This document shows positions 7,488-39,235 of a stretch of DNA of 64,000 nucleotides, piece after piece. The stretch covers positions 4,096,001 through 4,160,000 of the forward strand of contig CBDCWI010000002.1 of NCBI GenBank assembly GCA_965223325.1, written 5' to 3'. This stretch comes from Candidatus Multivoradales bacterium. GTDB taxonomy: Bacteria > Acidobacteriota > Thermoanaerobaculia > Multivoradales > Multivoraceae. The translations under genes and the position numbers were made by a program. How positions within the stretch are numbered: the first letter of the stretch is position 1; each line of letters opens with the position of its first letter. The notes beneath the pieces were generated by a model. It made no database searches. It was not told where the DNA came from and was given only the letters and a program-made list of their open reading frames with translations.

Positions 7488-9023
7488 TTGCAACTAGAAG
7501 GATCTCTCAACGAAATCGCGGTCGCACCGCTACTCGAGCGGGTCGGTGCCCTGGGCAAAACCGGCATCCTCACGATTCACAGTGAAAGCGACATCATCGC
7601 GGTCACCTTCCTGGATGGGCGAATCGTGGCAGCCGATGCGCTCAACGAACCGATCGACGAAGGTCTCGGCCAGGTTCTGATCAGCCAGGGCCTGCTTACC
7701 GAAGAGCGCTTCACGGGCATGCTCGAGGACGCTCGCGGGGCGAGTCGCCGCCTGTCGCATCACCTGGTGGAGCGGGCAGTGGTGGGTCGCGACCAGGTCC
7801 TCGAGGCGGTGCGCCTGCAGACGTATCGCCTGTTGCTTCGCCTGCTGCGCTGGAACGAAGGCGAGTGGAACATCTTTGTCGGCGACGAGATCTCCTACGA
7901 GGACGGCATCCGCCCGATTGCGGTGGAAGAGGTGCTCGTTCGGGCGCAGGGGGACCTGGGTGACGAATCACCCGTTGATGGCGTCCTGCCGGAACTCGAA
8001 ACCACCTGGGAGCGTAGCCCCGACACCCGCACCATCAAGATCCTCGGTATCGACGGAGATACTCCGAGTGGCGATGAGACCGAGGTGTGGGTCACGGCGG
8101 CTCAGCACGCCCTGTTGCGCGAGAGCGAAGGCGGCTGCTTCGGCACCTCGCTGCTCACCCGTGCTGGGCTCGATGAGTACGAGGTGCGTTGGGGTCTCTC
8201 GCAGCTGCGCAACCTCGGCATGGTCAACGAACGCCAGCAAACGGAGCTCGAGGTCGGCGAGCACACTCTCGGTGGAGGGGGTCTCGGCAGTCTCGACGAC
8301 CAGGTTCGCGATCCGCTGCGCGAAACCGGCAGCCACTCGTTCCTCGGCGACACCGACGCTTCGCTGGGAGAGCTGCTCTCCGGGGCCCCGGTCGAAGCCG
8401 AAGCTGATTTCCTTCGCGACACTGGCTCATTCGGCGGGCTGGTGCCGCCGCCACCCACCGGCCAGCGACCAGTTTCAGCCGGCCAGACCGGTGTCCACGA
8501 GAAGGTCACGCCGCCTCCCAAGTCCGCGGCTCCTAGCCGTCACAAGGCGCGGTCGATTCTGCGGGACTTCGTCGATGTCTGGTTGGGGCGCACCATGGCG
8601 CTCGGCTTCTTCCTGGTCGTCGTGCTGGCCTTTGCGCTCATGCCGGACCGCAACGGGTTGTTCTTCCCCTACCCTTGGCAGGAACGTCAACGTGAGGCAT
8701 TCGAGAGCGCCCAGCGTGCTTCTCAGGCCGCCAAGCTCGATCGCGCGGTGCGTTCCTACTACCTGCTCTATGGGCGCTTCCCCGAACGTCTCGGAGCCCT
8801 CTCGGCTCTCGAGCTCTTGAGTCCCAACGATCAGGTCGACAGCCGGGGTCGGCAGCTGCAGTACTCCTCAGCCAAGACTAGCTACACCCTGCAGCCGCTT
8901 CGCGATGGCCAGCCGGTGCCGGGTCTCGAACGCACCTACGACGTGGCGGAAGACTTCCTGCTCAGCCCGGAGTTCGTGCGGGTGCAGAGAAACGAGCGCA
9001 GCCCGGTGGTTCTTCTGGATTGA
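7488..9023 (+). CDS. DUF4388 (PatA-N-like) domain membrane protein with C-terminal pseudopilin-like segment
   Basis: LEGSL...LL..V...GKTGILTI...F.DG.IVAA and LL.W.EG motifs; one TM helix; YYLLYGRFPERL..L....D..GR...Y. Confidence 0.75.
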   Translation: MQLEGSLNEIAVAPLLERVGALGKTGILTIHSESDIIAVTFLDGRIVAADALNEPIDEGLGQVLISQGLLTEERFTGMLEDARGASRRLSHHLVERAVVGRDQVLEAVRLQTYRLLLRLLRWNEGEWNIFVGDEISYEDGIRPIAVEEVLVRAQGDLGDESPVDGVLPELETTWERSPDTRTIKILGIDGDTPSGDETEVWVTAAQHALLRESEGGCFGTSLLTRAGLDEYEVRWGLSQLRNLGMVNERQQTELEVGEHTLGGGGLGSLDDQVRDPLRETGSHSFLGDTDASLGELLSGAPVEAEADFLRDTGSFGGLVPPPPTGQRPVSAGQTGVHEKVTPPPKSAAPSRHKARSILRDFVDVWLGRTMALGFFLVVVLAFALMPDRNGLFFPYPWQERQREAFESAQRASQAAKLDRAVRSYYLLYGRFPERLGALSALELLSPNDQVDSRGRQLQYSSAKTSYTLQPLRDGQPVPGLERTYDVAEDFLLSPEFVRVQRNERSPVVLLD

Positions 9024-10110
9024 TTGAGGCGGGCGTGGTTGGTCGCGGTTGTAGCGCGGGCCGGCGTTTCTTTCTTTGTTGGTGGATGGGGTGGCCGGTT
9101 GACGGTGCGAGGTGGTTACCACGCCCGCCTCAACCGGTCTTCTCCCCCCTTGGGATTGAGGCGGGCGTGGTTGGTCGCGGTTGTGGCGCGGGCCGGCGTT
9201 TCTTTCTTTGTTGGTGGATGGGGTGGCCGGTTGGCTTTGTGAGGTGGTTACCACGCCCGCCTCAATCGGTCTTCTCCCCCCTTGGGATTGAGGCGGGCGT
9301 GGTTGGTCGCGGTTGTAGCGCGGGCCGGCGTTTCTTTCTTTGTTGGTGGATGGGGTGGCCGGTTGACGGTGCGAGGTTGGTTACCACGCCCGCCTCAACC
9401 GGTCTTCTCCCCCCCTTGGTATCCCCCCAGGGGGACGGCGCAAGCGGTCCGTGGCGCTGGCCTTCTTTGTGGGGCCCTGGTTCCCTGCACTTGCGGCGTC
9501 GGCCTTCGTTTCGCTTGTCGCGCGCCTTTGCCGGACTTCGGGACTGAAGCGCGAGGTGCCTTCCGCGCTGGTTAGCGCGGGCCGGCGTTTCTTTCTTTGT
9601 TGGTGGATGGGGTGGCCGGTTGGCTTTGTGAGGTGGTTACCACGCCCGCCTCAATCGGTCTTCTCCCCCCTTGGCATCCCCCCAGGGGGACGGCGCAAGC
9701 GGTCCGTGGCGCTGGCCTTCTTTGTGGGGCCTGGTTCCCTGCACTTGCGGCGTCGGCCTTCGTTTCGCTTGTCGCGCGCCTTGCCGGACTTCGGGACTGA
9801 AGCGGCGGTGGTTTCGTGGCGGTTTGTAGCGCGGGCCGGCGTTTCTTTCTTTGTTGGTGGATGGGGTGGCCGGTTGGCTTTGTGAGGTGGTTACCACGCC
9901 CGCCTCAACCGGTCTTCTCCCCCCTTGGTATCCCCCCAGGGGGACGGCGCAAGCGGTCCGTGGCGCTGGCCTTCTTTGTGGGGCCTGGTTCCCTGCACTT
10001 GCGGCGTCGGCCTTCGTTTCGCTTGTCGCGCGCCTTTGCCGGACTTCGGGACTGAAGCGCGAGGTGCCTTCCGCGCTGGTTAGCGCGGGCCGGCGTTTCT
10101 TTCTTTGTTG
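9023..10110 (+). repeat. Tandem array 1: three 132-bp stem-loop units followed by about 255-bp composite units
   Basis: ATTGAGGCGGGCGTGGT at 9023, 9155 and 9287 (period 132); GCAAGCGGTCCG at 9440, 9695 and 9949 (periods 255/254); inverted arms 9024-9039 / 9118-9133. Confidence 0.95.
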
Positions 10111-10235
10111 CCTACGTCCAAACGGGGTCCGGAGGGGCCTCTGTCCCTGGTCGGAGCCCTCGAAGCTCCGGCTTTCCTCTGGGCCCTCGGGAATAAATCT
10201 TAGTCTCTTTCTGTCATATAGGTTGTTCGTGGCGA

Positions 10236-10266
10236 TTTGACAGTGATGGGCTCAGGAGTGTACGCT
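10236..10266 (+). promoter_or_regulatory. Sigma70-type dnaK promoter with overlapping HAIR-like operator
   Basis: TTGACA(10237-10242)-N18-TACGCT; TTTGACA-N7-GCTCAGG resembles the HspR site CTTGAGT-N7-ACTCAAG. Confidence 0.5.
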
Positions 10267-10423
10267 TCGGCCTGCTGCGAGGGTTGGGGCACGGTGAGCC
10301 CTGGTCTGCGGCTGTCGGGCGCTGTCGAGCGCGCCGGGGTGCTTTGTGCTCCAAGAGCGAGTCCAGAACTCACCCGAACCAAACCAGAACTTTTCGAAAC
10401 CTATCGGGACGGAGAACAAAGAG

Positions 10424-12340
10424 ATGAGCAAGATCATTGGTATCGACCTGGGAACGACCAACAGTGTCGTTGCGGTCATGGAAGGAGCGGAGCCCAAGGT
10501 GGTTCCCAATAGCGAAGGCGGTCGAACGACGCCTTCGATCGTGGCGTTTGCCAAGAACGGTGAGCGACTGGTTGGGCAGGTTGCCAAGCGCCAGGCGGTG
10601 ACCAACCCCGAGAACACGGTGTTCTCGATCAAGCGCTTCATGGGTCGTCGTAAAGACGAGGTCAGCGACGAGATGAGCATGGTTCCCTACACCATCGAGG
10701 CGTCGGGACAGGACGTGGTGGTCAAGGCGAATGGCAAGAGCTACACGCCGCCCGAGATCTCCGCGATGATTCTCCAGAAGCTCAGGCAGGCAGCGGAGGA
10801 CTATCTCGGTCAGCCGGTGAGCAAGGCAGTGATCACGGTTCCCGCCTACTTCAACGACGCCCAGCGCCAGGCGACCAAAGACGCCGGCAAAATCGCCGGC
10901 CTCGAGGTTGAGCGCCTCGTCAACGAGCCCACCGCGGCCGCCCTCGCCTACGGTCTCGACCAGAAGGGCGACACGACGATTGCGGTCTACGACTTCGGAG
11001 GCGGTACGTTCGACATCTCGATTCTCGAAGTCGGCGAAGGTGTTGTCGAAGTCAAGTCGACGAACGGTGACACCCACCTCGGTGGCGACAACATCGACCA
11101 GCGGGTCATCGAGTGGATCCTCGAGGAGTTCAAGAAGGACCAGGGGATCGACCTGTCGGCCGACCCGATGGCCATGCAGCGCCTCAAGGAAGCCGCCGAG
11201 AAGGCGAAGATCGAGCTCTCGACCGCCCAGGAGAGTGAAATCAACCTGCCCTTCGTCACTGCCGACGCCTCGGGCCCCAAGCACCTGAACCTGTCGCTGA
11301 CCCGCTCGAAGCTCGAGCAACTGGTCGGCGATCTGGTCAAGCGTTCGCTCGAGCCCTGCCAGAAGGCGCTCGACGACGCTGGCGTCAAGCCGGCGGACAT
11401 CGACGAGGTGGTCCTGGTCGGTGGCCAGACCCGCATGCCTGCCATTCAGGAGGCAGTTTCTGAGTTCTTCGCGCGGGAAGCGCACAAGGGCGTCAACCCG
11501 GACGAGGTCGTTGCCCTCGGTGCGGCGATTCAGGGCGGGGTGCTTGCCGGTGACGTCAAAGACGTTCTGCTGCTCGACGTGACGCCCCTGTCGCTCGGCA
11601 TCGAGACCATGGGCGGCGTGGCACACAAGCTGATTGAGCGCAACACCACCATCCCGGCGCGCAAGAGCGAAGTCTTCTCGACCGCCAGCGACAACCAGAA
11701 CCAGGTCGAGGTGCACGTGTTGCAGGGTGAGCGCGAGATGGCGATCGACAACCGCACCCTCGGCAAGTTCAATCTGGTGGGCATCCCCCCGGCGCCGCGC
11801 GGCGTGCCGCAGATCGAGGTCACCTTCGACATCGACGCCAACGGCATCACCCACGTCTCCGCCAAGGACCTGGGAACCAGCAAGGAGCAGAAGATCACCA
11901 TCTCTGGTTCGAGCGGTCTCTCTGACGAGGACATCGAGCGTATGGTCAACGACGCCCAGGCGCACGCTGGCGACGACAAGAAGCGTCGCGAGACAGCCGA
12001 GGCTCGCAACCAGCTCGACTCGCTGGTCTACTCAACCCAGAAGACCCTCGACGAGCACGGCGATAAGCTCGACGCTCCGTCGAAGACGGCCATCGAGGAA
12101 GCCCTCGAGGAAGGCAAGAAGGCCCTCGAGGGCGAGGATACCGAGGCGATGACCGCGGCAGTCTCCAAGATCTCGGAGGTCTCCCACAAAATGGCCGAGG
12201 CGATGTACCAGGCGGCGGGTGCCGAAGGCGCCACACCTGGTGCCGATGCCGCTCCAGGCACCGAGACTGCCGACGCTGGCGAGGCCGACGACGAGGTCAT
12301 CGATGCCGAGTACGTGGACGTCAACGACAAGGCGAGCTGA
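10424..12340 (+). CDS. dnaK: Chaperone DnaK (Hsp70)
   Basis: [59 protein letters not shown]; true start is ATG 10424 after GGAG. Confidence 0.99.
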
Positions 12341-12355
12341 TAGCCTTCGCCTCCC

Positions 12356-12760
12356 ATGGAGAAACGCGAAAGCTACCTTCACGAGCTATCCCGGATCCGG
12401 GGAGAGATCAACCGACTGTTCGAGACGGCGCTTTCGAGCGCCGGTCTCGACAGCGGTAGTCCGCTTCCCCCGGGGGCCTGGCTTCCACCCATGGACGTCC
12501 TCGAGGAGGACGACCACTACGAGTTTCACGTCGAGCTGCCGGGAGTCGACCCGGGCGGCATCCACTGTTCCATCGACGACGGGGTGCTCCAGATTTCGGG
12601 CCAGCGCTCCATGCCACTGGAGGAAGGTTCGAGCTTTCGCCGCATGGAGAGGATCTACGGCCCGTTCCGGCGCATGGTCGAGCTACGTGGGCCGGTCGCT
12701 TCGGAGCCTCAGGTGGACTTTCGCGACGGGATTCTCACGGTCCGCGTCGATCGCAAGTAA
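12356..12760 (+). CDS. Small heat-shock protein Hsp20
   Basis: W.PPMDVLE, VELPGV, L.ISGQR, RRMERIYG.FRR, F.DGILTV. Confidence 0.93.
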   Translation: MEKRESYLHELSRIRGEINRLFETALSSAGLDSGSPLPPGAWLPPMDVLEEDDHYEFHVELPGVDPGGIHCSIDDGVLQISGQRSMPLEEGSSFRRMERIYGPFRRMVELRGPVASEPQVDFRDGILTVRVDRK

Positions 12761-12814
12761 GAGGCGACCGAACGGCTCGGCCGCCTCACCAGGGAACAAA
12801 CCGAGAGAAGCACC

Positions 12815-13192
12815 ATGGCGCGCGCCAAGCGATACGTGATGATCAGCGTCGTCGCTGAACGGTACGGTATCCATCCGCAGACGCTCCGTTTGTACGAGCG
12901 CGAAGGTCTGATCGAGCCCCATCGCAGCGAGGGCAACACACGTCTCTACGATGAAGAGTCGATCGCGCGCCTCGAGGCGATTCTCGCCCTGACGCGCGAT
13001 ATGGGCGTCAACCTCGCAGGCGTGGAGGTCATCCTCCGTCTCAAGGCGCATTTGCAGGAGCTCGAAGAAGAGAATCTTCGTCTCCGTCGGGCGCTCGAGA
13101 TGGAGCGTCGCGATCGCCGGAGTGGCGTCGAGCGGCAACGGGCACTGGTCAAGTTCGAGAGCGCGGCCCTCCTGCGTCTCGAGGACGAGTAG
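12815..13192 (+). CDS. hspR: Heat-shock repressor HspR (MerR family)
   Basis: ISVVAE.YGIHPQTLRLYEREGLI.P.RS.GNTRLY and GVNLAGV; located in the dnaK operon. Confidence 0.9.
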   Translation: MARAKRYVMISVVAERYGIHPQTLRLYEREGLIEPHRSEGNTRLYDEESIARLEAILALTRDMGVNLAGVEVILRLKAHLQELEEENLRLRRALEMERRDRRSGVERQRALVKFESAALLRLEDE

Positions 13193-13372
13193 GGACGAGT
13201 AGGTCGGAGAGCGCGCAGCGCACCGGGTGTCTGCCTTGGGCTGCTAGGCTTACGGTTCGCCCGCCGCACCGTCCTCCTCCTGAGGTACGGTCCCTCCGGT
13301 GTTCTGGTGACACTCCGTGCGGCACCGCATGGCGGTGTGACCCCCGCCCCTCCAGTTTACAAAGTGAGGCCG

Positions 13373-14161
13373 ATGTCAGCCCCTCTCGATTTCCCGGTTC
13401 CGCCCGCTTGCTCGGTGTGCTCTGGGCGACGCTGGATTGTTGAAGAGGGGCGTGCTCGTCGCTGCGAATGCGCCCAAAGCATTCCAGGGTCGAACCTGAT
13501 CGAGAGGGCGGGGTTGCCTCCGCGCTATCGCGATTGCCGGCTGGAGACGTTCAAACCCGAAGTCGCCAGCGGTTCTGCCCGTGAGCAGCTGGCGCGCGCG
13601 CGCAGCATCTGCCGGCAGTACATCGATGAGTTTCTCGAAGCCGATGGGCTCTTTCGCGAGACCGGGCTGATCTTCATTGGCCCCCCGGGGGTCGGTAAGA
13701 CGCATCTGGCGGCGGCGGTTCTGCGAGAGTTGATCGAGCAGTACCGAGTCGATGGGCGGTTCGTCGACTTCACCAGCTTGTTGCACGAGATCCAGGCGAC
13801 CTTCGACTCGTCGTCGCCGATCACCAAGAACGCAGTGCTCCGCCCGGTCACCAATGCAGAAGTCCTGGTACTCGATGAGCTCGGAGCACAGAAGCCGACC
13901 CCCTGGGTCTCCGAGATGCTCTACCTGATCATGAACGCGCGCTACTCTCGGCGCCTACCGACCCTCTTCACCACCAACTTTCGGCTCGACCCGGAGGCCG
14001 AGGAGCAGGGCCTGGACCGCGGCGCCGATCAAACCGCGTCGCTCCATCGACGCATTCCGGCACCGCTTCTCAGTCGTCTCTACGAAATGGCTCGTCCCGT
14101 CGTGCTTGACGGTGCGCCCGATTTTCGGCGCCAGATTCAGGTCCACCAGCACGGCATCTGA
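13373..14161 (+). CDS. DnaC/IstB-like AAA+ ATPase with N-terminal Zn-finger
   Basis: CSVC...CEC, Walker A GPPGVGKT, Walker B LVLDELG, TLFTTN, SRLYEM; no istA transposase nearby. Confidence 0.88.
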   Translation: MSAPLDFPVPPACSVCSGRRWIVEEGRARRCECAQSIPGSNLIERAGLPPRYRDCRLETFKPEVASGSAREQLARARSICRQYIDEFLEADGLFRETGLIFIGPPGVGKTHLAAAVLRELIEQYRVDGRFVDFTSLLHEIQATFDSSSPITKNAVLRPVTNAEVLVLDELGAQKPTPWVSEMLYLIMNARYSRRLPTLFTTNFRLDPEAEEQGLDRGADQTASLHRRIPAPLLSRLYEMARPVVLDGAPDFRRQIQVHQHGI

Positions 14162-14186
14162 TCGCCGCTATCGATCTCGAGAAGAC

Positions 14187-16421: not shown

Positions 16422-16429
16422 GAGCGCAC

Positions 16430-17178: not shown

Positions 17179-17277
17179 GGCCGGGGCCCTCGTGGAGATG
17201 AATCAGAGATGAAAGTGCTGCCGGAGAGATGAAGCAGAGTACACGGTGACCAGCGTCCGTCCGAACTCGGTGGAAGA

Positions 17278-18210
17278 AGTCGGCAAACGCCACGGAGCGC
17301 TTGCGCCGACGCCCCGCTTTGTGCAGGCCAGGGGAGAGGCATCGTTGGGAGGGGGTGTGGTTTGGAGGAGTAGCAACCGCGAGGTCGCCGCCAACCTCGG
17401 GACGGTCCACCAGGCGTGAACACCAAGACTGCACCCAGCGACGCGCAGTCCGTGGGGTTAGCGCGTCCGGAGAGGCGCGCGACGATCCCTCGTCTACGAC
17501 GATCGCTGCTGCAGGGGTACGGCTTCTGCAGTCGGCAAACGCCACGGAGCGCTTGCGCCGACGCCCCGCTTTGTGCAGGCCAGGGGAGAGGCATCGTTGG
17601 GCGGGGGTGTGGTTTGGAGGAGTAGCAACCGCGAGGTCGCCGCCAACCTCGGGACGGTCCACCAGGCGTGAACACCAAGACTGCACCCAGCGACGCGCAG
17701 TCCGTGGGGTTAGCGCGTCCGGAGAGGCGCGCGACGGTCCCTCGTCTACGACGATCGCTGCTGCAGGGGTATGGCTTCCGCAGTCGGCAAACGCCACGGA
17801 GCGCTTGCGCCGACGCCCCGCTTTGTGCAGGCCAGGGGAGAGGCATCGTTGGGAGGGGGTGTGGTTTGGAGGAGTAGCAACCGCGAGGTCGCCGCCAACC
17901 TCGGGACGGTCCACCAGGCGTGAACACCAAGACTGCACCCAGCGACGCGCAGTCCGTGGGGTTAGCGCGTCCGGAGAGGCGCGCGACGGTCCCTCGCCCA
18001 CGACGATCGCTGCTGCAGGGGTATGGCTTCCGCAGTCGGCAAACGCCACGGACCGCTTGCGCCGACGCCCCCCTTGGGGGACCCGGGGGGAGAAAGACGT
18101 TGATTCTGGGTGTGGTAACGACGTCTTCCATGCACGAGGTCGCCCCCGCAACCAAATCACTCCACAATCAACGGCACTCCCATCATCGACAAGACCACAC
18201 CCAGAATCAA
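17278..18210 (-). repeat. Tandem array 2: three near-identical 252-bp units plus a divergent terminal copy with a perfect 17-bp stem
   Basis: GTCGGCAAACGCCACGGA at 17279, 17531, 17783 and 18035; inverted arms 18100-18116 / 18194-18210. Confidence 0.95.
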
Positions 18211-18981
18211 TCAGAACTGAACCTTCTGGACAAAGAAGTCGGAGGGAGAGACTTTGCCTTCAGCCAAGGCCTTCGCGTCGGCCGGCCCGATGAGGAACTG
18301 GCCAGAGCGTTCGTTGCTCCGGTCGACCATGAGGACTTCGAAGGCCGCGAGCTGGCGATGGGCTGGTTTCACTTCGAGGAAACCGTGGGCGACAGCTTCG
18401 AGAGCCTCGAACACTTCTTTGGCTCCCGGTGCCTGCAGGTGAATCACCGCGCGGTCGGCGCTCGTGCCCTGAAAGACTTCTGGCCGGCGGATGCCGCGGT
18501 TCTCGAGCGCCTTGACAATGGCCTCGGCGAGCCCCGCGTCGGGGAGCCGCTCGCGACGGAGGACCTGCAGATCTGGATAGCCGGCTCGGGTCTTGCGGAT
18601 CTGAGGCCCAGAGTTGCTGCGGCCTGTGCTGAGCCGTCGACTGCCGATCGCGGCCCCGGGTGTCTGGTTGTTTCGGTTGACGTCGCTCGTGGTGAGCGGC
18701 CTGGCGCCGTCGTCGCCCAGGACCCTTGTGCTGTTGCCGAGGTTGTTGGTGTTGAAGCTCTTGGTCTTCTCGACGTCGACCTCAGATAGCGGGATCGAGG
18801 TCTGTGAGCCATTCGTGCGGGTGAAGAAGGCGCGGTCCCCGCGCACCTCGTAGGGGCCCTGGGCGTCGATCTGTTGACCGGTCTTGAGCACAATCGTGTA
18901 GGCCGAGGCGAGAGCGGCGAAGAAACTCGAGATCACAAAGACGATGAGAACGACGCGGACAGGGAAGAGAAGACGAGACAT
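18211..18981 (-). CDS. Hypothetical exported protein
   Basis: Signal peptide ending ALASA; typical GC3 codon usage. Confidence 0.75.
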   Translation of the reverse strand: MSRLLFPVRVVLIVFVISSFFAALASAYTIVLKTGQQIDAQGPYEVRGDRAFFTRTNGSQTSIPLSEVDVEKTKSFNTNNLGNSTRVLGDDGARPLTTSDVNRNNQTPGAAIGSRRLSTGRSNSGPQIRKTRAGYPDLQVLRRERLPDAGLAEAIVKALENRGIRRPEVFQGTSADRAVIHLQAPGAKEVFEALEAVAHGFLEVKPAHRQLAAFEVLMVDRSNERSGQFLIGPADAKALAEGKVSPSDFFVQKVQF

Positions 18982-30555: not shown

Positions 30556-31395
30556 ATGGCGACTAGAAAGAAAGCGAAACGCAAGAAGGCGAAACGCAAG
30601 ACCGCGAAACGCAAGACCGCGAAGAGGCGGACCACGAGGAAGAAGGCAACACGCAAGAAGGCCAAGCGCAAGACCAAGAAGAAGGCAACACGCAAGAAGG
30701 CCAAGCGCAAGACCAAGAAGAAGGCCAAGCGCAAGACGGCGAAGCGCAAGACCAGGAAGAAGGCCAAGCGCAAGACGGCAAAGCGTAAGACCAGGAAGAA
30801 GGCCAAGCGCAAGACGGCGAAGCGTAAGACCAGGAAGAAGGCCAAGCGCAAGACGGCGAAGCGTAAGACCAAGAAGAAGGCCAAGCGCAAGACGGCGAAG
30901 CGTAAGACCAGGAAGAAGGCCAAGCGCAAGACGGCGAAGCGTAAGACCAGGAAGAAGGCCAAGCGCAAGACGGCGAAGCGTAAGACCAGGAAGAAGGCCA
31001 AGCGCAAGACGGCGAAGCGTAAGACCAGGAAGAAGGCCAAGCGCAAGACGGCGAAGCGTAAGACCAGGAAGAAGGCCAAGCGCAAGACAGCGAAGCGTAA
31101 GACCAAGAAGAAGGCCAAGCGCAAGACGGCGAAGCGTAAGACCAGGAAGAAGGCCAAGCGCAAGACGGCAAAGCGTAAGACCAGGAAGAAGGCCAAGCGC
31201 AAGACGGCAAAGCGTAAGACCAGGAAGAAGGCTACGCGTAAGAAGGCCAAGCGTAAGACCAAGAAGAAGGCTACGCGTAAGAAGGCCAAGCGTCGGACCA
31301 AGAAGAAGGCTACGCGTAAGAAGGCCAAGCGTCGGACCAAGAAGAAGGCCACGCGCAAGAAGGCCAAGCGCAGGACGACCCGCAGAAGGCGCTAG
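30556..31395 (+). CDS. Histone H1-like (Hc2/AlgP-like) K/R/T/A repeat protein, 279 aa
   Basis: GGAGGA SD at 30541, ATG 30556, synonymous variation among repeats, downstream terminator. Confidence 0.85.
   Translation: MATRKKAKRKKAKRKTAKRKTAKRRTTRKKATRKKAKRKTKKKATRKKAKRKTKKKAKRKTAKRKTRKKAKRKTAKRKTRKKAKRKTAKRKTRKKAKRKTAKRKTKKKAKRKTAKRKTRKKAKRKTAKRKTRKKAKRKTAKRKTRKKAKRKTAKRKTRKKAKRKTAKRKTRKKAKRKTAKRKTKKKAKRKTAKRKTRKKAKRKTAKRKTRKKAKRKTAKRKTRKKATRKKAKRKTKKKATRKKAKRRTKKKATRKKAKRRTKKKATRKKAKRRTTRRRR
30721..31227 (+). repeat. 13 x 39-bp coding repeat (KAKRKTAKRKT[R/K]K)
   Basis: AAGGCCAAGCGCAAGACGGC.AAGCG.AAGACCA.GAAG recurs every 39 nt. Confidence 0.95.
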
Positions 31396-31421
31396 CGCGC
31401 TGTTCTGACGGAAACGTCAAC

Positions 31422-31461
31422 GGGCCCGGGTCCGGTACTCTTACCGGCTCCGGGCCTTTTT
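31422..31461 (+). terminator. Rho-independent terminator
   Basis: GGCCCGG..CCGGTA-ctct-TACCGG..CCGGGCC hairpin followed by TTTTT. Confidence 0.85.
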
Positions 31462-32122: not shown

Positions 32123-32220
32123 CGACAGGCCTTCGTCGCCGACGGCAAGATCCATGCTCCGGCGCCCCGCCAGGCCTGGTGTGCCCGCTCGAGAACCGTA
32201 ACGACTGCCTTTCTTCGACC

Positions 32221-32252
32221 AAAGAGAAAGGCCGGAGGGACTCCCTCCGGCC
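32221..32252 (-). terminator. Terminator downstream of the ompA-like gene
   Basis: GGCCGGAGGGA-TCCCTCCGGCC hairpin followed by TTTCTCTTT on the minus strand. Confidence 0.7.
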
Positions 32253-32299
32253 GGTTCTCCTCGTCTCGGGTCAGCGTCCGAGATGCCTTCGAGGCCTCC

Positions 32300-32929
32300 T
32301 TACTGCAGCACGACGAGGACGACGCGACGATTCTGTTCGCGGCCTTCCTTGGTGCTGTTGTCGGCGATGGGCTCGCTCTCGCCGTAGGAGATCACCGCCA
32401 TGCGATGCAATGGAATGCCCTGCTTGCTGAGGTGGCGACGGACGGCTTCGGCCCGCTCGAGGCCCAACTCTTCGTTGTAGGTGTCGGTTCCTGTGGCGTC
32501 GGTGTGGCCCTGGATCTCGACGTAAACGTTCTTGTTTTCGCCCTTGAGCCGGGTCACGAAGCCGTTGAGTACGCCGGCCGCCGAGTCGTCGATCTCGGCC
32601 TTCTCACTGTCGAAGCGAACGTCGGCGTTGGTGAGCACGGTTTCGTACAACAGCTTGCCCTCGGCGAGCTTCCCGGCTTCGACCGCACGATCCAGGGCGT
32701 CCTGGGCGGTCTTCGAGACCTCGGCGATCTCCTTCTCGTTGCTTTCGATGCGCATCTGATTGTTCTCGATCTGGCCTTCGAGATCGTCGACCTGCTGGTC
32801 GACGCGCTCGGTGACCCGAGCCTCGGCGGTTGCGATCTCGGCACGGGTGTACTTCTTCGTGGCGCAGCCCTGGGCGATCAGGCCACAGACTGCGACAGCG
32901 ACGAGCACCGTGTACTTGCGATTCTTCAT
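32300..32929 (-). CDS. OmpA-family lipoprotein
   Basis: MKNRKY...AQGC lipobox, IQGHTD, NEELGLERAEAV, ISYGESEP, NRRV; AAGGAG SD. Confidence 0.92.
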   Translation of the reverse strand: MKNRKYTVLVAVAVCGLIAQGCATKKYTRAEIATAEARVTERVDQQVDDLEGQIENNQMRIESNEKEIAEVSKTAQDALDRAVEAGKLAEGKLLYETVLTNADVRFDSEKAEIDDSAAGVLNGFVTRLKGENKNVYVEIQGHTDATGTDTYNEELGLERAEAVRRHLSKQGIPLHRMAVISYGESEPIADNSTKEGREQNRRVVLVVLQ

Positions 32930-33020
32930 ACGAATGTTCTCCTTGGTTTCTTTCCCCGTTGTTGGGGAGTTGATTTCTTGAACTCGGAAACTGAAATCTG
33001 TTGGTGCTGCTTGCCTCGCC

Positions 33021-34043
33021 TCAGTCGGGAGCACCGGCCGGTGGTGGCCCAAAGTACCGCGGCCGGTGTCTTGGCTGGCGCTTCCTCCCACGCACTTCGA
33101 TCTCGACGCTGTGAGAGCTCGAAGCACGCGAGCTATCGGCGGCGAAACCGAGCACGTACTGGCGCCGCAGTTCACGCGCGATTTCGGCGGTGACCAGTGC
33201 CAGCTGAGTCGGCGTTCGTGGTCGGTAGTAGCGGCCACCGGTGCCCTTCGCCAAGAGCTCGAGGACGCCAAGTGGCTTATCGCTGGCCGGGGGAGGAGCG
33301 CCAGACGGGTTGAAACGGCTGAGGTCAATGACGTAGACCGGCAGCTCAGTCGAACGTACGTGACGCTCGGCATCTTCGGGGTGGATCACGCTGGCGTTGT
33401 CTTGACCGTCGGTGATGACGACCGCTGCCCGCCGGGTGCGACTGCCGTCGAGAGACACCTCGGGGAGCCAGGTCACGGCGTCGTAGAGCGCTGTGGTGCC
33501 GTGTGCTGTCCAATCGTGACTCAACGTCTGGAGGTCTTCGAGTCGGGCAGTGAAGGGTGCTGCGACGGTCACCTTTTCGCCAGTAAAGGTCACCAGGGAG
33601 ACCTCGTCTTGGGTTCCCATCGCCTTCATGAACCGGGCGAGGGTCTCCTGGCTGGCTTCGATCTTCTCTCTGAGCGCCATGCTTCCCGAGAGGTCTTGGA
33701 GATAGACCACGCTGACCGGCGCATCGAGGCGATTCTCGAAGGTCTCGATGGCGACCGGTCGGCCGTCGACCCGCAGGTTGAAGTCGCGAACATCGAGGCC
33801 ATCGGCGAGCTGGGTTCCCTGGAGAACCACGGTGGGAATCAACACCCAGCGGACCGCGATCGTGTCGTTGAAAACGTAGCGGGGATCAATTCCCGGCGCG
33901 TCTTCCTGGGCGGCGGCCGAGGCTGCGGCAAGCACCAGCAACGTGAAAACCGGGCCCAGAAGGCTCTGGTAGCCTGCCCTTCTGGCCGCTGGGCTCGGCT
34001 CTCTCAAGCAGGTCAGGCTGGCAGAGGGGTGCCGTTTTGCCAC
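33021..34043 (-). CDS. VWA-domain protein (acidobacterial VWFA-related type)
   Basis: Signal peptide, MIDAS DLSGSM, TALYDA, ITDGQDN, LA..TGG, ELRRQY.LGF; start uncertain. Confidence 0.85.
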   Translation of the reverse strand: MAKRHPSASLTCLREPSPAARRAGYQSLLGPVFTLLVLAAASAAAQEDAPGIDPRYVFNDTIAVRWVLIPTVVLQGTQLADGLDVRDFNLRVDGRPVAIETFENRLDAPVSVVYLQDLSGSMALREKIEASQETLARFMKAMGTQDEVSLVTFTGEKVTVAAPFTARLEDLQTLSHDWTAHGTTALYDAVTWLPEVSLDGSRTRRAAVVITDGQDNASVIHPEDAERHVRSTELPVYVIDLSRFNPSGAPPPASDKPLGVLELLAKGTGGRYYRPRTPTQLALVTAEIARELRRQYVLGFAADSSRASSSHSVEIEVRGRKRQPRHRPRYFGPPPAGAPD

Positions 34044-34107
34044 CTTGACCGACCGGTCGGTAGCTTTGTTTGATCCCCCCACTGGGCCCGAAGTACTGAG
34101 GCGTGAG

Positions 34108-34368
34108 ATGCCCGAAGAGTCCATGATCAACATCCGCAACCTATCGATCAAGTGCGGTCATTGCGACACGTACCAGACACTCTGCGGTTTTCGTAGATTA
34201 GAGGATTGGAACGTGTATGTGTATGAATGCGAGAATGATGCCTGCGATCCAGCCGTAACGAGGACCCTGCTCGAAGTCCCCGTCAGTATGGACGAGTTTG
34301 CCACTCGCGACCCGAACTGGAAAGGCGGCGGGCGGCACGGTGCCGAGGGTCGCTCTGAGGGCACGTGA
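34108..34368 (+). CDS. Small Cys-rich putative Zn-binding protein
   Basis: CGHC....C...YECENDAC; start at 34108 or 34123. Confidence 0.65.
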   Translation: MPEESMINIRNLSIKCGHCDTYQTLCGFRRLEDWNVYVYECENDACDPAVTRTLLEVPVSMDEFATRDPNWKGGGRHGAEGRSEGT

Positions 34369-34462
34369 CGGTCTCTGTCACCTGCTGGCGGGGCTACGCA
34401 TGGCGCTCGTGGTGCTCGGTTGCGTGTGTTAGCTTCGCGCCGTCCAAAGGAGCTCCATTGTT

Positions 34463-35530
34463 TTGAAGAACATCGTCCACGTAGTAGGTACCGGCACCAT
34501 CGGCGAGCCGCTCATCGGCCTATTCACCGACTTCGCTGACAAGATGAACATTGATGAGGTGACGTTTCACAAACGGACGCCGCTTCACACCGACAAGTCC
34601 CGCCTCGAGCATTTGATGGGGCGCGGCGCACGCCTGGCAGTCGGCGACGACGTCCGCAAAGACTTCGAGGACCTCGGCCACAAAGTCTCGCTGAGTTCGG
34701 AAGAGGCGCTCGAGCGTGCCACCGTAGTCATCGACTGCACGCCGGCCGGGAATCAGAACAAAGAGCGGTTCTACTCGCAGCTCGATGGCCCGCGCGGCTT
34801 TCTCGCCCAGGGTAGCGAGTTCGGCTTTGGCAAACCCTATGCGCGAGGAATCAACGACGATGTCCTCGTCCCCGGAGAAGACCGGTTCCTGCAGATCGTT
34901 TCCTGCAACACGCACAACATCACGACGCTGGTCAAGACGGTTTGCTGCAGTGGTGACGATGGCGCCTTTTCTCTCGACCGCGCGCGTTTCGTTTGCATTC
35001 GCCGGGCGAACGACATCACCCAGTCAAACTCGTTCATTCCGTCGCCTCAGGTCGGCAAGCACGGAGACCCCCGCTTCGGTACTCATCACGCGCGCGACGC
35101 GGCTGCGGTCTTTGAAACCATCGGTGCCAACCTCGACCTGTTCTCGAGTGCTCTCAAGGTGAACACGCAGTACATGCATTCGATCTGGTTCAACCTCGAG
35201 ACCAACGAGCCCGACCTCGATACCGTCGAAGTCATCCGTCGCCTGCAGGCCAATGCGCGGGTGGCGCTGACCCAGAAACTCGACGCCAACCTGATCTTCA
35301 GCTTCGGGCGCGATCATGGTTACTACGGGCGAATCCTTTCGCAAACTGTCGTTGCTGAACCAACGCTCACGGTTCGAGACGGAGAGATCTTCGGGTTCTG
35401 TTTCACGCCGCAAGACGGCAACTCCCTCCTGTCGTCGGTTGCCGCGGCGTTGTGGTTGATCGATCCCGACCGGGACAGCGTGCGCGAGCGCCTGTCACCG
35501 CTCAGACGCTGGCTCTATACCGAGATCTGA
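34463..35530 (+). CDS. Class II (archaeal-type) GAPDH-like dehydrogenase
   Basis: VVGTGTIG, VIDCTP, AQGSE, IVSCNTH, RRAND, THHARD, MH; AAGGAG SD with TTG start. Confidence 0.75.
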   Translation: MKNIVHVVGTGTIGEPLIGLFTDFADKMNIDEVTFHKRTPLHTDKSRLEHLMGRGARLAVGDDVRKDFEDLGHKVSLSSEEALERATVVIDCTPAGNQNKERFYSQLDGPRGFLAQGSEFGFGKPYARGINDDVLVPGEDRFLQIVSCNTHNITTLVKTVCCSGDDGAFSLDRARFVCIRRANDITQSNSFIPSPQVGKHGDPRFGTHHARDAAAVFETIGANLDLFSSALKVNTQYMHSIWFNLETNEPDLDTVEVIRRLQANARVALTQKLDANLIFSFGRDHGYYGRILSQTVVAEPTLTVRDGEIFGFCFTPQDGNSLLSSVAAALWLIDPDRDSVRERLSPLRRWLYTEI

Positions 35531-35621
35531 GTCCCGACGACTCGGGTGGAGGGCGAACCGCCCGGCCGGCGAGTGACAGCGGGTGAGACGGGAGCGTAAG
35601 GAACCACCCGAGAAACCCGCC

Positions 35622-36866
35622 ATGACATCGCAACAGCCGGAAAACCCCGATCAAGCCGCAGGCGAGACCGCTCAGCAGCTTGCGTCGCTCGAAGAAGCCG
35701 AGCTGACGATTGAGAAGATCGTCGCTGGTGGAGAGGGGCTGGCGCGTTGGTTCGGTGCTGCGATCCTGGTGCGCGGCGTCGCCGCGGGTGACCGGGTACG
35801 GGTCAGAGTCAGGGAGCGTCATCCCACCTGGGCGCGCGCCGAGTTGCTCGAGGTGATCGAGAGAGGTCCCGGGCGCCGTGCTGCTCCTTGCCCGTACTAC
35901 GACCGTTGCGGCGGTTGCGACATGCAGCATCTCGATGAAGAAACGCAGGTTCAGGCCAAGGTCGACGCCGCGCGCGAGGCTATCGAACGCCTCGGCGGAA
36001 TCGAGATCAAAGACTGCCAGGTCATCAAGGGCGATCGCTGGGCATTCAGACGTCGTGCGCAGTTTCAGATCGCCCCTTCTGAGGACGGCCCGCCGCGCGT
36101 TGGTTACTACGCTCGGGGAACTCACGAAGTCGTGCCTGTAGACCGGTGCCCGATCCTGGTGCCGGAGCTCGACGAGTTACTCGAACGCCTACCAGTTCTC
36201 TTGCCCGAGAATCCACCCCGGCGCCTCGACGTCGCCGCTGCTGACGACGGTCGCGTGGCCTGTGCGCCGCTCGTCGGTGACCTTCCCGGTGGCGAACTCT
36301 CGTTGGCGGCGAGTGGCAACCTGTTGCGCTTCGATGCTCGCTGTTTTACCCAGGGTCATCGTCAACTGACGCCAGAGCTGGTGCGCGTCGCCGTCCCCGA
36401 TCGAGCCGAGGGAGAACCTCCGTACGAGGTGGCCTACGATCTCTTTGCGGGCGTGGGTCTCTTCGCTTCTGCGCTGGCTCCTCAGACCAAGCGGTTGATT
36501 GCGGTCGAGGGTGACCGGGTCGCGGCGACGTGGGCCAGGCGTAACCTCAAGCGCCATCGGCACGCGACGGTGGTTCACCAGCGTGCCGAGCGCTACGCCA
36601 AGCAACTCGAGGCCGGTGCCGACCTGGTGCTCGTCGACCCGCCGCGATCCGGCCTGCCCCGGCCGCTACGTCGTGCTTTGCGCTCGCGGTCACCCCGGCA
36701 CCTGACCTACGTGTCCTGCCATGCGGCGACCCTGGCGCGTGACCTGAAGGAATTCGGCGACCGATTCCGGGTGCTTTCGGTGACCTTCCTCGATCTCTTT
36801 CCCCAGACCTCGCACCTCGAGACCGTTGTTCACCTGGAACGGGTTCAGAGACTGGCGGTTGAATAG
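35622..36866 (+). CDS. rlmD: RlmD/TrmA-family RNA m5U methyltransferase with TRAM domain
   Basis: CPYYDRCGGC [4Fe-4S] motif, DLFAGVG, DPPRSG, YVSC...TLARD, FPQTSHLE. Confidence 0.88.
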   Translation: MTSQQPENPDQAAGETAQQLASLEEAELTIEKIVAGGEGLARWFGAAILVRGVAAGDRVRVRVRERHPTWARAELLEVIERGPGRRAAPCPYYDRCGGCDMQHLDEETQVQAKVDAAREAIERLGGIEIKDCQVIKGDRWAFRRRAQFQIAPSEDGPPRVGYYARGTHEVVPVDRCPILVPELDELLERLPVLLPENPPRRLDVAAADDGRVACAPLVGDLPGGELSLAASGNLLRFDARCFTQGHRQLTPELVRVAVPDRAEGEPPYEVAYDLFAGVGLFASALAPQTKRLIAVEGDRVAATWARRNLKRHRHATVVHQRAERYAKQLEAGADLVLVDPPRSGLPRPLRRALRSRSPRHLTYVSCHAATLARDLKEFGDRFRVLSVTFLDLFPQTSHLETVVHLERVQRLAVE

Positions 36867-36892
36867 ACTGGAACGCGGAGGAACGCCCGCTC

Positions 36893-37378
36893 ATGTCCAG
36901 TTACCACATCGTGCTTGCCAAGGAGAACTTCAAGTTCTCAGCCGGACACTTCACAGTGTTCTCGAACGAGCATGCCGAGTTGCTGCACGGTCACAACTAC
37001 AAGGTCCAGGTCGAGCTGCACAGCGAAGAGCTCGATGGACTCGGTTTCGTCGTCGACTTCGCCGGCGTCAAACAACGCGTGCGCGAAGTCTGTGCACAGC
37101 TGGACGAACGCATCCTGCTACCCGAGCAGTGCCGTCACCTCGAAACCAGTCGCGATGGATCACAGATCGAGGTGGCCTTTGGCGACCGTCGGTACCAGTT
37201 GCCGTTCGAGGACGTCGTGCTCCTTCCGCTGGTGAATACGACCGTCGAACTCTTGGCCCAATGGCTGTGGGAGCAGATCGTACCCGCCGTCGTGGGAACC
37301 TCCGTTGAGGTCATGTCGGTCGACGTCGAGGAGACCGCTGGCCAGCGCGCCGGCTTCAGGGCCGCCGTGCCTTCGTAG
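36893..37378 (+). CDS. 6-pyruvoyltetrahydropterin synthase family (PTPS-III-like)
   Basis: FSAGHF, ELLHGHNY, VVDF, NTTVELLA, VEET. Confidence 0.85.
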   Translation: MSSYHIVLAKENFKFSAGHFTVFSNEHAELLHGHNYKVQVELHSEELDGLGFVVDFAGVKQRVREVCAQLDERILLPEQCRHLETSRDGSQIEVAFGDRRYQLPFEDVVLLPLVNTTVELLAQWLWEQIVPAVVGTSVEVMSVDVEETAGQRAGFRAAVPS

Positions 37379-37383
37379 CTTCT

Positions 37384-38031
37384 CTAGCGATAGGGGCGCG
37401 GGATACCGCGTTGCTGCTCGATGCGGCGGCGCGCGTCGCGGCGACGGTCGGGCTGGAAGAAGATCGTCTCGTCGCCCTCCCTGGTGAAGCGATAGTGCTT
37501 GTTCGGTTTGCGACCGGTAAGACCCGCTGAGCTTGTCTTGGGGTAACTCCACAAGGCCACGTCGCCATCGAGGACATTGCGGTTCTCCTCCCAGTCCTTT
37601 TCCTCGGGCTCACCAAAGAGAACGAAGATCGTTCCGCGGTCGCTGCGATGGCCAGTCGAGGTTCCTTCCCGGAAGAGCTTGTCGGCTTCTTCGCGACGCT
37701 CATCGTATGTCGCACGAACGTCAGAGTTTTTCTTCCAGAAATCCTCGATGAACCGTTCCGCTTCCTCGTCGGTGACCAGTTTGAGGTAGCTGTTGATGCC
37801 CTTTTCGCCCAACATCCAGGAAATCGGCCCGACCATCCAACGCGCATGTTTCGGGCTGAGGAGTGGGTTGGTCAGGTCGCCGGGCTCGATATGGCGTGGG
37901 TTCTTAGGGTTGGGAACCCAGTCATCTCCAGCTCCAGCACTGGTAGCGGCGAGCGCGACCAGAACGAGAGCAGCGAGGAGCGAGTGGGAGAGGGACATCA
38001 GGGTTCTCGGGACCTTGCGAGTGCTCTTCAT
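37384..38031 (-). CDS. GWxTD-like domain exported protein
   Basis: Signal peptide; FIEDFW...R..EAD.LF...GHRSDRG.IF.LFGEP. Confidence 0.8.
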   Translation of the reverse strand: MKSTRKVPRTLMSLSHSLLAALVLVALAATSAGAGDDWVPNPKNPRHIEPGDLTNPLLSPKHARWMVGPISWMLGEKGINSYLKLVTDEEAERFIEDFWKKNSDVRATYDERREEADKLFREGTSTGHRSDRGTIFVLFGEPEEKDWEENRNVLDGDVALWSYPKTSSAGLTGRKPNKHYRFTREGDETIFFQPDRRRDARRRIEQQRGIPRPYR

Positions 38032-38164
38032 GAGGACCTTCTTGGCGGTGGTCGGTAGGGGGCATCGACTCGAACACCGAAAGGCTCCGAGATAGTTCCG
38101 AACGCAAGACGTTCAGCGCTCCGAAGCCAGATTCTAGTCAAGGACTCGAAAGGGTCGAACAGAA

Positions 38165-39048
38165 CGTTTCATGGAAGCACGGATCCGCGGTGCGCGAGGG
38201 CTTATCGCAGTCGAAGAAGGCAAGTGCAGTTCGGCAGTCGAAGACGGTCGGCGCAGCCAGGTGGAGTCGGGCGGACCGTCGCAGTCCAGGAACTCAACCG
38301 CAGGTGGCAGGTCGAATCCGGGATGGACTCGACCCCCTTCAAGCTGTCGCCGCAATCCCGATCCGAAGACAACCGTTTCATGGAAGCACGGATCCGCGGT
38401 GCGCGACGGGCCATCGCAGCCTAAGAAGGCAAGTGCAGTTCGGCAGTCGAAGACGGTCGGCGCAGCCAGGTGGAGTCGGGCGGACCGTCGCAGTCCAGGA
38501 ACTCAACCGCAGGTGGCAGGTCGAATCCGGGATGGACTCGACCCCCTTCAAGCTGTCGCCGCAATCCCGATCCGAAGACAACCGTTTCATGGAAGCACGG
38601 ATCCGCGGGGCGCGACGGGCCATCGCAGTCGAAGAAGGCAAGTGCAGTTCGGCAGTCGAAGACGGTCGGCGCAGCCAGGTGGAGTCGGGCGGACCGTCGC
38701 AGTCCAGGAACTCAACCGCAGGTGGCAGGTCGAATCCGGGATGGACTCGACCCCCTTCAAGCTGTCGCCGCAATCCCGATCCGAAGACAACCGTTTCATG
38801 GAAGCACGGATCCGCGGGGCGCGACGGGCCATCGCAGTCGAAGAAGGCAAGTGCAGTTCGGCAGTCGAAGACGGTCGGCGCAGTCAGGTGGAGTCGGGCG
38901 GACCCTCGCAGTCCAGGAACTCAACCGCAGGTGGCAGGTCGAATCCGGGATGGACTCGACCCCCTTCAAGGTGTCGCCGCAATCCCGATCCGAAGACAAC
39001 CGTTTCATGGAAGCACGGATCCGCGGGGCGCGACGGGCCATCGCAGTC
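38165..39048. repeat. Tandem array 3: 4.2 copies of a 209-bp unit
   Basis: CGTTTCATGGAAGCACGG at 38165, 38374, 38583, 38792 and 39001. Confidence 0.95.
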
Positions 39049-39235
39049 TAAGTACGCAACTGCAGGGCGGCCGCTGGTGAATCCGGCCCGCCCCCCGGAC
39101 CGCTTGCCCCGCAAGAGTGACTCTAGCGACGGTCGTGGTAACCACCCACCGCCGAAGCCAAACAGAAACCCGCTCCCACCGCCCGACCCAACGCCACGAC
39201 GACCCAAAAGCCGACAAACCACGGCCGTCGCTAGA
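39028..39235 (-). other. Terminal copy of the shared stem-loop element
   Basis: Inverted arms 39122-39139 / 39218-39235 around a 78-nt loop; CGGACCGCTTGC at 39096-39107. Confidence 0.85.

Follow-up and report, generated by a model that had tools for sequence, protein, structure and literature searches.

Results

Three tandem arrays begin on the stop codons of their upstream genes

A family of palindromic repeats is represented at three loci in a 64,000-nt stretch of DNA (the window) from Candidatus Multivoradales bacterium, namely positions 4,096,001 to 4,160,000 of contig CBDCWI010000002.1. Window positions are counted along this stretch, and positions prefixed C1 or C2 along the two contigs of the 6.69-Mb genome. 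Tandem arrays were called with TRF, which places those at the three loci at 9022-10110 (periods 132 and 254), 17278-18075 (period 252) and 38165-39065 (period 209). Each of them begins on the stop codon of its upstream gene (Table 1). An initial annotation, made from the sequence alone, had proposed that the three apparently unrelated arrays share one architecture when read in the sense of the upstream gene. The features it described are all present where it placed them, and they belong to a single genome-wide family.

Each locus opens with a hairpin, at 9024-9133, 18100-18210 and 39122-39235, respectively, with arms of 16, 17 and 18 bp and loops of 77-78 nt, as annotated; G and T make up 70-83% of these loops when they are read in gene sense. 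The 12-mer GCAAGCGGTCCG occurs five times, at 9440, 9695 and 9949 and, on the minus strand, at 18049-18060 and 39096-39107, against a chance expectation of 0.01, and the motifs CCCTGCA and GTCGCGC keep their spacing in the alignment. The hand count of 53 identities in 80 ungapped positions between 17981-18060 and 39028-39107 proved exact; 20,000 draws of random window pairs gave a mean of 21.5 identities per 80 (standard deviation 4.2) and a maximum of 38. Whole units of 209-254 nt repeat at 93-98% identity without unique spacers, in agreement with the annotation that these are not CRISPR arrays.

The repeat is built of four modules. Module H is a palindrome of 17-18 bp, whose outer end, N-TAG...CTA-N, overlaps the upstream stop codon and whose top, CGTGGT/ACCACG, is constant; in gene sense the left arm reads N-TAG-C-N6-7-CGTGGT and the right arm ACCACG-N-GCTA-N. 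Module L, present in nearly all copies of this species, is a G/T-rich loop filler of 60-82 nt with the conserved blocks TTnCGGCC.., GGCGGTGCnGTTGGAG, GCGACCT and GTCGTT. Module M is an optional C-rich tract with a mini-hairpin. Module C is a core of ~140 nt, closed by a helix of 7-10 bp (GCGGCGC/GCGCCGC), in which the blocks GGCGCAAGCGGTCCG .. CGCCCTGCA .. GTCGCGCGCC-GCGGATTC .. CTTCGATGGAAC follow one another in this order. In type A elements the right arm is followed by GTCACnnTTGC; in type B elements, to which window loci 1 and 2 belong, it is followed by the C-rich tract with a CCCCC/GGGGG mini-hairpin.

At locus 1, the first hairpin has 16-bp arms and a 78-nt loop, and across the three hairpin units the arms span 16-18 bp around the inner motif CGTGGT/ACCACG, with G/T-rich loops of 78-79 nt. 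Each of the type B units that follow consists of module M with its CCCCC/GGGGG mini-hairpin, the ~140-nt core (laid out as GCAAGCGGTCCG..CCCTGCA..GTCGCGCGCC..CCGGAC), and a partial loop with the right arm. Locus 2 continues after its hairpin with an M module (18061-18099), three complete core-bearing units of 252 nt each, and a fourth core that is cut short (17276-17343). At locus 3 there is one complete type A core, which starts with GTCACTCTTGC-GGGGCAAGCGGTCCG and matches our core model at 130 bits (C2 4134989-4135128), and then four 209-nt units, each made of the 3' two-thirds of the core (nhmmer model positions 55-174) and a locus-specific tail.

Table 1. Coordinates of the three repeat loci in the window and of their upstream genes
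Feature	Position	Strand	Evidence or remark
Locus 1 upstream gene, DUF4388 protein	7488..9023	+	ORF list, Pfam PF14332
Locus 1 upstream-gene stop, TGA	9021-9023	+	adjoins first hairpin arm; -18 from arm inner end
Locus 1, three tandem hairpin units (modules H+L)	9024-9398 (C2 4105024-4105398)	+	hairpin scan; TRF period 132 x3
Locus 1 hairpin units	9024-9133, 9154-9267, 9288-9398	+	
Locus 1, three type B units of 254-255 nt	9399..10110	+	TRF period 254 x3.1; nhmmer core hits C2 4105433-4106036
Locus 2 upstream gene, without Pfam family	18211..18981	-	TGA stop 18211-18213 adjoins hairpin arm
Locus 2 hairpin, 17-bp arms TTGATTCTGGGTGTGGT, 77-nt loop	18100..18210 (C2 4114100-4114210)	-	hairpin scan
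Locus 2 array	17276..18099	-	TRF; nhmmer; sequence laid out in gene sense
Locus 3 upstream gene, TPR protein	39231..40307	-	TAG stop 39231-39233 = positions 3-5 of 18-nt left arm
Locus 3 hairpin, 18-bp arms TCTAGCGACGGCCGTGGT, one C-A mismatch, 78-nt loop (83% G+T)	39122..39235	-	hairpin scan
Locus 3 array	38165..39121	-	TRF period 209 x4.3; nhmmer

The family occupies about 65 loci in the genome

The family is not confined to three loci, as the initial annotation had it. An nhmmer profile seeded with seven window cores found 144 core copies in the first search and, after four rounds, 175 copies at 65 loci on both contigs; 42 of 67 strand-separated core loci carry two or more cores in tandem. 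We also built a hairpin model (R1) and a core model (R2). In this genome, R2 returns 79 sites at 87-138 bits. A scan for hairpins with arms of at least 14 bp, at most one mismatch and an end in GTG[GAC]T yielded 58, of which 57 are in the family and 49 represent independent loci. The family overlaps 39 of the 74 long-period tandem arrays of the genome, 33 kb in total. Rfam gave no match at gathering score in the window, and none at E<=1 in 20 elements. A repeat family without an Rfam match takes up at least 33 kb of this genome and sits on the stop codons of essential genes, among them recA, guaB, argG and bamA.

The upstream genes are functionally unrelated (a kinase, BamA, a TonB receptor, RecA, IMPDH, ArgG, a tRNA synthetase and others). 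From locus to locus, copies of the element are 68-83% identical, compared with 93-98% for tandem copies, and no upstream sequence similarity is found in any of the 25 most similar copy pairs at separate loci.

Modules occur in different combinations. Module L was never seen without a right arm: its 57 hits comprise 23 full hairpins, 34 internal array units and none elsewhere. The hairpin on the gyrB stop is of the composition H+M, with the same arms and top, a 3-nt loop and then the type B C-rich module, and it has neither L nor a core. At C1:1559021, a short-loop hairpin is joined to a type A core, i.e., H+C without L. The 34 internal array units usually consist of loop, right arm and core with only a stump of the left arm, so that most units cannot form the hairpin. 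Their left boundary varies from a full arm to a point inside the loop, and units carry locus-specific tails. A site-specific array junction was rejected on account of this variable left boundary.

The stop codon is part of the palindrome

An open reading frame (ORF) of at least 100 aa with high G+C at third codon positions has its stop codon in or at the left arm of 44 of the 58 scanned hairpins. The register is narrow: in 32 of these 44, the first base of the stop lies exactly 15 nt before the last base of the left arm. The stops are TAG in 35 cases, TGA in 7 and TAA in 2, compared with shares of 42%, 52% and 6%, respectively, in 2173 crude ORFs (TAG excess, p=7e-7). A TAA or TGA stop is matched by TTA or TCA in the right arm; the stop codon therefore belongs to the palindrome. 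The edge of pairing is also sharp, as 47 of 49 hairpins are paired at position 17, 30 of 49 at position 18 and 4 of 49 at position 19. Taken together, the register and this edge indicate that the palindrome starts 1-2 nt inside the last sense codon. According to last-codon counts, the 32 stops in the -15 register (2 TGA and 2 TAA included) are preceded by C 20 times, by G 10 times and by T 3 times. The resulting (C/G)TAG tag has its pairing partner, CTA-N, in the opposite arm; in place of the tag, window loci 1 and 2 have TTGA. Between foot and top, the middle seven stem positions differ freely among loci, conservation being confined to the top CGTGGT/ACCACG and the foot TAG/CTA.

The orientation of the elements is strictly gene-sense. 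The downstream genes are co-directional in 19 cases and convergent in 19, by a crude ORF call that is wrong for at least one window locus and on which we do not rely. Of the 44 upstream proteins, 18 end in F, Y or W, compared with a baseline of 6.5%. In the only available genome of the same genus (G001), the orthologue of the locus 2 gene also ends in ..EF, followed by TGA and no element; the aromatic bias thus looks like a preference for a TTC-stop sequence and not like a change made by the element. The locus 3 orthologue ends in ..PKIPE*, compared with ..PKI* here. Insertion into pre-existing short hairpins was considered and dropped, as a perfect hairpin with a short loop and 10 bp or more stands at the stop of only 3 of the 2173 crude ORFs.

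Covariation in the stems does not prove an RNA

That the outer arms differ among loci while pairing is kept, as the initial annotation had noted, is borne out by a larger alignment. For 43 hairpin units, RNAalifold predicts only the 18-bp stem, with double changes at 14 of its 18 pairs. For 32 type A cores, it predicts a closing helix of 10 pairs, of which 4 show double changes (e.g., G-C in 22 copies and C-G in 9). Over stem positions 1-17, 818 of 833 pairs are Watson-Crick, and the rest are 2 G-T, 8 A-C and 5 other mismatches; the 49 hairpins behind these counts had been pre-selected for near-perfect stems. One-sided changes number 0-4 per stem pair. Relative to dinucleotide shuffles there is no folding excess, with a mean z of -0.19 for the loop in sense, -0.64 for the core in sense and -0.01 for the core in antisense; z falls below -2 in 5 of 32 cores in sense and in 1 of 32 in antisense.

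Selection on an RNA would be expected to leave G-U intermediates in the strand that is transcribed. Such pairs are nearly absent here, and thus the covariation does not prove an RNA. Homogenization of the two arms at the level of DNA accounts for it equally well. Template switching is known to homogenize the arms of inverted repeats (PMC8604942, PMC7202029), and it would give this exact pattern without any RNA. In practice, a structured RNA must not be deduced from covariation in elements of this kind, which screens for RNA motifs, like gene callers, will go on flagging.

A group II intron uses the cores as an insertion site

A group II intron of ~1.91 kb is present in 14 copies that are 99-100% identical (e.g., C2:510979-512902, minus strand), none of them in the window. 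In Rfam, group-II-D1D4-6 is matched with 180.6 bits; the reverse transcriptase (RT) ORF of the intron matches RVT_1 only. In 13 of the 14 copies, the intron lies in a core of the family, antisense and directly after ..GGACCGCTTG, the complement of the 12-mer GCAAGCGGTCCG; the insertion point is thus a fixed sequence inside the 5' strand of the core helix. The 14th copy has CGCTTG upstream in common with the others. Terminators and attC sites supply the target motifs of class C group II introns (PMC4424553). The likeness is that an intron with an endonuclease-less RT lands on a repeated, structured, gene-distal motif. The intron described here differs in that it matches group-II-D1D4-6, is antisense, and occupies a fixed site in the 5' strand of the core helix. 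Abundant and harmless cores have been turned into the homing site of this intron.

The hairpin, and not the core, is shared with sister genera

With the best 79 or 21 candidates scored in each, R2 found no core in 40 relatives, including the sole genome of the same genus, and none in 150 genomes across the phylum. A 19-mer scan of the genome collection gave 50 single matches, all of which were rejected as chance by R2 (<=21 bits, vs >=87 for family members), and a two-block core pattern had no match in a metagenome collection. In G001, the stops of the orthologues of the three window genes are followed by plain intergenic DNA; at a protein identity of 38-51%, however, these loci are too diverged for junctions to be read in the empty-site comparison that the initial annotation had suggested.

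In two sister genera, the top motif with a short loop outnumbers its reversed control by a factor of 15-70, in contrast to the background level elsewhere. The counts of CGTGGT-N3-5-ACCACG and of the control are 98 and 5 in G010, 74 and 1 in G015, 69 and 2 in G014, and 49 and 2 in G002; they are 1 and 1 in the present genome, in which the copies have a long loop. These hairpins also sit on gene ends, as 7 of 8 sites with the TAG pattern in the sister genera, and 6 of 7 sampled hairpin loci in G010, end a long ORF. Tandem arrays of ~95 bp are found in G010. Two weak R1 matches in relatives are likewise hairpins with a short loop that sit on stop codons, with tandem modules behind them. Rfam gave only three sub-threshold chance matches on sister-genus hairpin loci. 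At G014:C7:6701-6736, one short-loop hairpin seemingly gives the TAG stop to two convergent ORFs (frames of 418 and 500 aa).

An intrinsic (Rho-independent) terminator has a GC-rich stem, a short loop and a 3' U-tract. In the family described here, the stem is present and a weak T-rich stretch, GTCACTTTTGC, follows the hairpin; the loop is 60-82 nt long, vs 3-5 nt in the sister genera. We conclude that the hairpin is older than the core, and that this species alone has added a loop filler and a core to an old hairpin that hugs stop codons. The short-loop H of the sister genera, together with the mixed module sets described above, marks the family as modular.

No mobilizing enzyme was found among the families searched

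The genome holds 28 Y1_Tnp, 4 IS110 and 13 TIGR02249-model matches, and one integron-integrase-like gene. The initial annotation had stated that no transposase or RT lies in the window; within the families searched this stands, as none of the 14 intron copies and none of the Y1_Tnp, IS110 and TIGR02249 matches falls inside the window. The annotation had also suggested looking for a copy of the element beside an HUH or IS110 gene, among others; none of the Y1_Tnp, IS110 and integron-integrase (IntI)-like genes is flanked by the element. No insertion sequence (IS) sharing the element ends was met among the families searched, which were Y1, IS110 and IntI only.

Several other loci came to light in this search. 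At C1:1305963-1306784, a single-copy Y1_Tnp gene has on both sides the same ~95-nt (CCCGGGCGYTT)n repeat, in direct orientation, which is different from the family. Clusters of paralogous genes for Y1_Tnp-domain proteins of 320-350 aa lie at the contig ends (C1:2.126-2.144 Mb and C2:4.455-4.487 Mb). GC skew suggests that the two contigs form one chromosome with an origin near C2:3.5 Mb. The gene at C2:3807261-3808190 scores 422 bits on the TIGR02249 model (cut-off 265) and has no hairpin-model match nearby; it adjoins 134-bp tandem copies that read like the 3' end of a tRNA gene.

Discussion

A modular REP/REPIN-like repeat is the probable identity of the family

We consider it probable that the arrays are a modular, lineage-specific palindromic repeat, like REPs (extragenic palindromes of a repetitive kind) and REPINs, residing in the 3' untranslated region (3' UTR) of ordinary genes. 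This reading is founded on published precedents, namely GTAG-tagged REPs that donate TAG stops and REPIN clusters in tandem. In PMC3733652, the GTAG termini of REPs supply the TAG stop of the flanking ORF, and REP clusters are reiterated together with flanking DNA; PMC3116915 describes REPIN hairpins as two inverted ends with a spacer, in which compensatory changes are common, and 16 tandem clusters that include flanks. The likeness extends to abundant extragenic palindromes downstream of genes that form lineage-specific families, to a hairpin of ~110 nt made of two inverted ends and a spacer with compensatory stem changes, to an xTAG foot that gives the flanking ORF its TAG stop, and to tandem clusters that include flanking DNA. 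The initial annotation's view that the family does not fit the GTAG-REP pattern is therefore doubtful, as (C/G)TAG stands at the hairpin foot of most copies and supplies the TAG stop. Likewise, its term "undescribed" is apt for the sequence family and not for the kind, since REP/REPIN-type repeats have been published. We found no earlier description for Acidobacteria in the literature, a search that did not cover the supplements of the REP papers, which may list acidobacterial REPs.

The differences are also clear. In REPINs the ends (invariant 16-mers) are conserved and the loop is not, whereas here it is the loop that is conserved and the stem that varies in its middle part; CTAG outnumbers GTAG among the tags, which take part in the pairing themselves; and a 140-nt core, optional modules and a fixed register with the stop codon are particular to this family. 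Unlike REPs mobilized by REP-associated tyrosine transposases (RAYTs), moreover, it has no RAYT-like gene flanked by elements, and its dispersed copies are old (<=83% identical). Both conserved ends and an associated RAYT are missing, and the family is therefore filed as REP/REPIN-like only: it works like REP/REPIN and is not proven to be a member.

Other hairpin repeats offer looser parallels. Correia (NEMIS) and ERIC elements are hairpin repeats of 100-150 nt that are co-transcribed with their neighbors, and Correia hairpins are substrates of RNase III. Both are MITEs (transposable elements of the miniature type, ending in inverted repeats) with conserved terminal inverted repeats (TIRs) and TA duplications, unlike the present family, which has variable arms and in which no duplication was found. 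We know of no report that pneumococcal BOX, enterobacterial BIME or terminator-like SPRITE elements (PMC3049150) hold a fixed register with the stop codon. Like the family described here, these three have separable modules in varied combinations and copy numbers, in transcribed intergenic regions near gene ends; their sequences are unrelated, and they are not known to have a long, variable, perfect stem.

A mechanism consistent with the REP/REPIN-like reading can be outlined. The elements would have spread in the past as non-autonomous DNA, mobilized in trans by a putative enzyme whose recognition signals are the hairpin's constant top and its (C/G)TAG foot. The arms would be kept complementary by intrastrand template switching at the DNA level, or by a need for a perfect duplex. 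Arrays would arise locally, through tandem duplication of an element plus its flank, and the hairpin, co-transcribed with the upstream gene, might act as a 3'-end barrier or processing site.

Several observations weigh against this reading. None of the 28 Y1_Tnp genes is flanked by the element, and the only case within 200 bp is an IS copy with different hairpins. Around the 11 transposase or integrase genes checked, including 6 Y1 loci, R1 gives just two weak matches, of 9.9 and 8.6 bits, with E=0.18 at best. Of 61 relatives, 47 have Y1_Tnp, in no correspondence with the hairpins, and G002 and G009 have hairpins yet no Y1 match in metagenome-assembled genomes that are 90-91% complete. The dispersed copies, at most 83% identical, give no sign of recent transposition. 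No target-site duplication was found in 14 single copies, which, together with the variable arms, upholds the annotation's statement that these are not MITEs with fixed TIRs. Nor are empty sites demonstrable, as the only same-genus genome shares 38-51% protein identity. The variable stem middle, set against the conserved ends of REPs and REPINs, counts on the same side. In addition, TAG is not rare (30,238 per strand), and thus sequence targeting alone does not explain the near-exclusive placement at stops or the gene-sense orientation. Finally, with an origin near C2:3.5 Mb, 27 elements lie on the leading and 22 on the lagging strand, i.e., without bias, unlike IS200/IS605 elements, which target the lagging strand (PMC6006769).

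Alternative explanations

The alternative that deserves most attention is a cis-acting 3'-UTR RNA device under selection, in which the terminating ribosome melts the left arm and the core is an RNA domain, such that translation termination is coupled to a terminator, to RNase processing or to mRNA stability. This is compatible with an origin as a repeat. The footprint of a ribosome reaches ~12-15 nt beyond the A site, and the -15 register in 32 of 44 hairpins, the strict gene-sense orientation and the same stop placement in sister genera all speak for such a device. So do the persistence of pairing in dispersed copies that are by now 70-83% identical, the slightly better folding of the core in sense than in antisense (mean z -0.64 vs -0.01), and the precedent of REPs, which are reported to act as RNA elements downstream of genes (PMC3733652). 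However, G-U pairs are not favored (2 G-T vs 8 A-C in 833), the loop shows no structure beyond that of shuffles (z -0.19), 34 internal units lack the outer left arm and cannot form the hairpin, the core is found in one species only with 190 other genomes searched, and the host genes have no common functional theme. On balance, we regard this explanation as rather unlikely. The initial annotation had offered a mobile element or a structured RNA; the non-autonomous repeat is the best reading of the two, and the structured RNA, for which two long-range helices are the basis, was overstated. A related idea, that the units are tandem genes for a trans-acting, structured or self-processing RNA of ~250 nt, would fit the conserved primary-sequence blocks in loop and core, the two covarying helices and the multicopy tandem arrangement. 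It is nevertheless very unlikely, given that no Rfam family is matched even at E<=1, the thermodynamic signal is weak, unit boundaries vary by locus and take in locus-specific tails, the core was not found in the relatives searched, and the elements always abut a stop codon and are never free-standing; promoter or terminator logic is not evident either, none having been looked for specifically.

Integrons have attC sites that stand behind cassette ORFs, differ in sequence and not in fold, and are hit by class C group II introns. Such sites, or another substrate of site-specific recombination, might be suspected from the location of the elements where genes end, a palindrome that is conserved while the sequence varies, the integron-integrase-like gene (422 bits) and the antisense insertion of 13 of 14 intron copies, given that IIC introns use attC sites and terminators (PMC4424553). 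Yet the hosts are scattered housekeeping genes at 65 loci and not a cassette array, and units within an array are near-identical and hold no ORFs. The core-site motif of attC is GTTRRRY/RYYYAAC, and it is not readable at the aligned arm ends. Furthermore, the IntI-like gene stands beside tRNA-end repeats without a hairpin-model match. This explanation is largely refuted and retains very little credibility; the initial annotation's statement that the elements are not attC sites holds, as attC features are absent and the loci are dispersed behind housekeeping genes. Nor is the G/T-rich loop coding, either as a read-through extension or as a small hydrophobic peptide. Locus 3 does have an open frame of 36 codons rich in V, G, F, L and W between the TAG of the left arm and that of the right arm, but this A-poor sequence is open in any frame, neither 209 nor 254 as an array period is divisible by three, and the distribution of loop lengths (60 and 73-83 nt, not multiples of three) refutes a coding role.

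The REP/REPIN-like reading does not account for the stop-codon register, the bias toward aromatic C-termini or the stems that are perfect and yet drift. A bolder proposal, which we hold to be quite improbable, is that stop-codon-anchored hairpin repeats form a distinct cross-phylum class that is placed by translation termination and not by DNA sequence targeting. Possible routes to such placement are that the terminating ribosome must melt the hairpin, which then governs 3'-end formation, or that insertion at the RNA level attaches copies of the element to mRNAs that have been cut at their stop codon. If this were true, the species described here would have extended the hairpin by a 78-nt loop and by a 140-nt core, the latter now a dedicated homing site of a group II intron. 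The family in any case provides a natural data set on the upkeep of palindromes under sequence drift, on stop-codon locking, and on the adoption of a repeat as a safe harbor by an intron.

Other repeats

The remaining 35 long-period (80-800 nt) arrays of the genome do not match the family (e.g., C1:444079-446240 and C2:2170323-2172428), and some of them may be other repeat families or coding repeats. In the window itself, a tandem repeat at 30637-31370 has a period of 39 nt, a multiple of three, with 18.8 copies at 96% identity and codons of the AAG/GCC/CGC type; it is probably a coding repeat rich in lysine, alanine and arginine.

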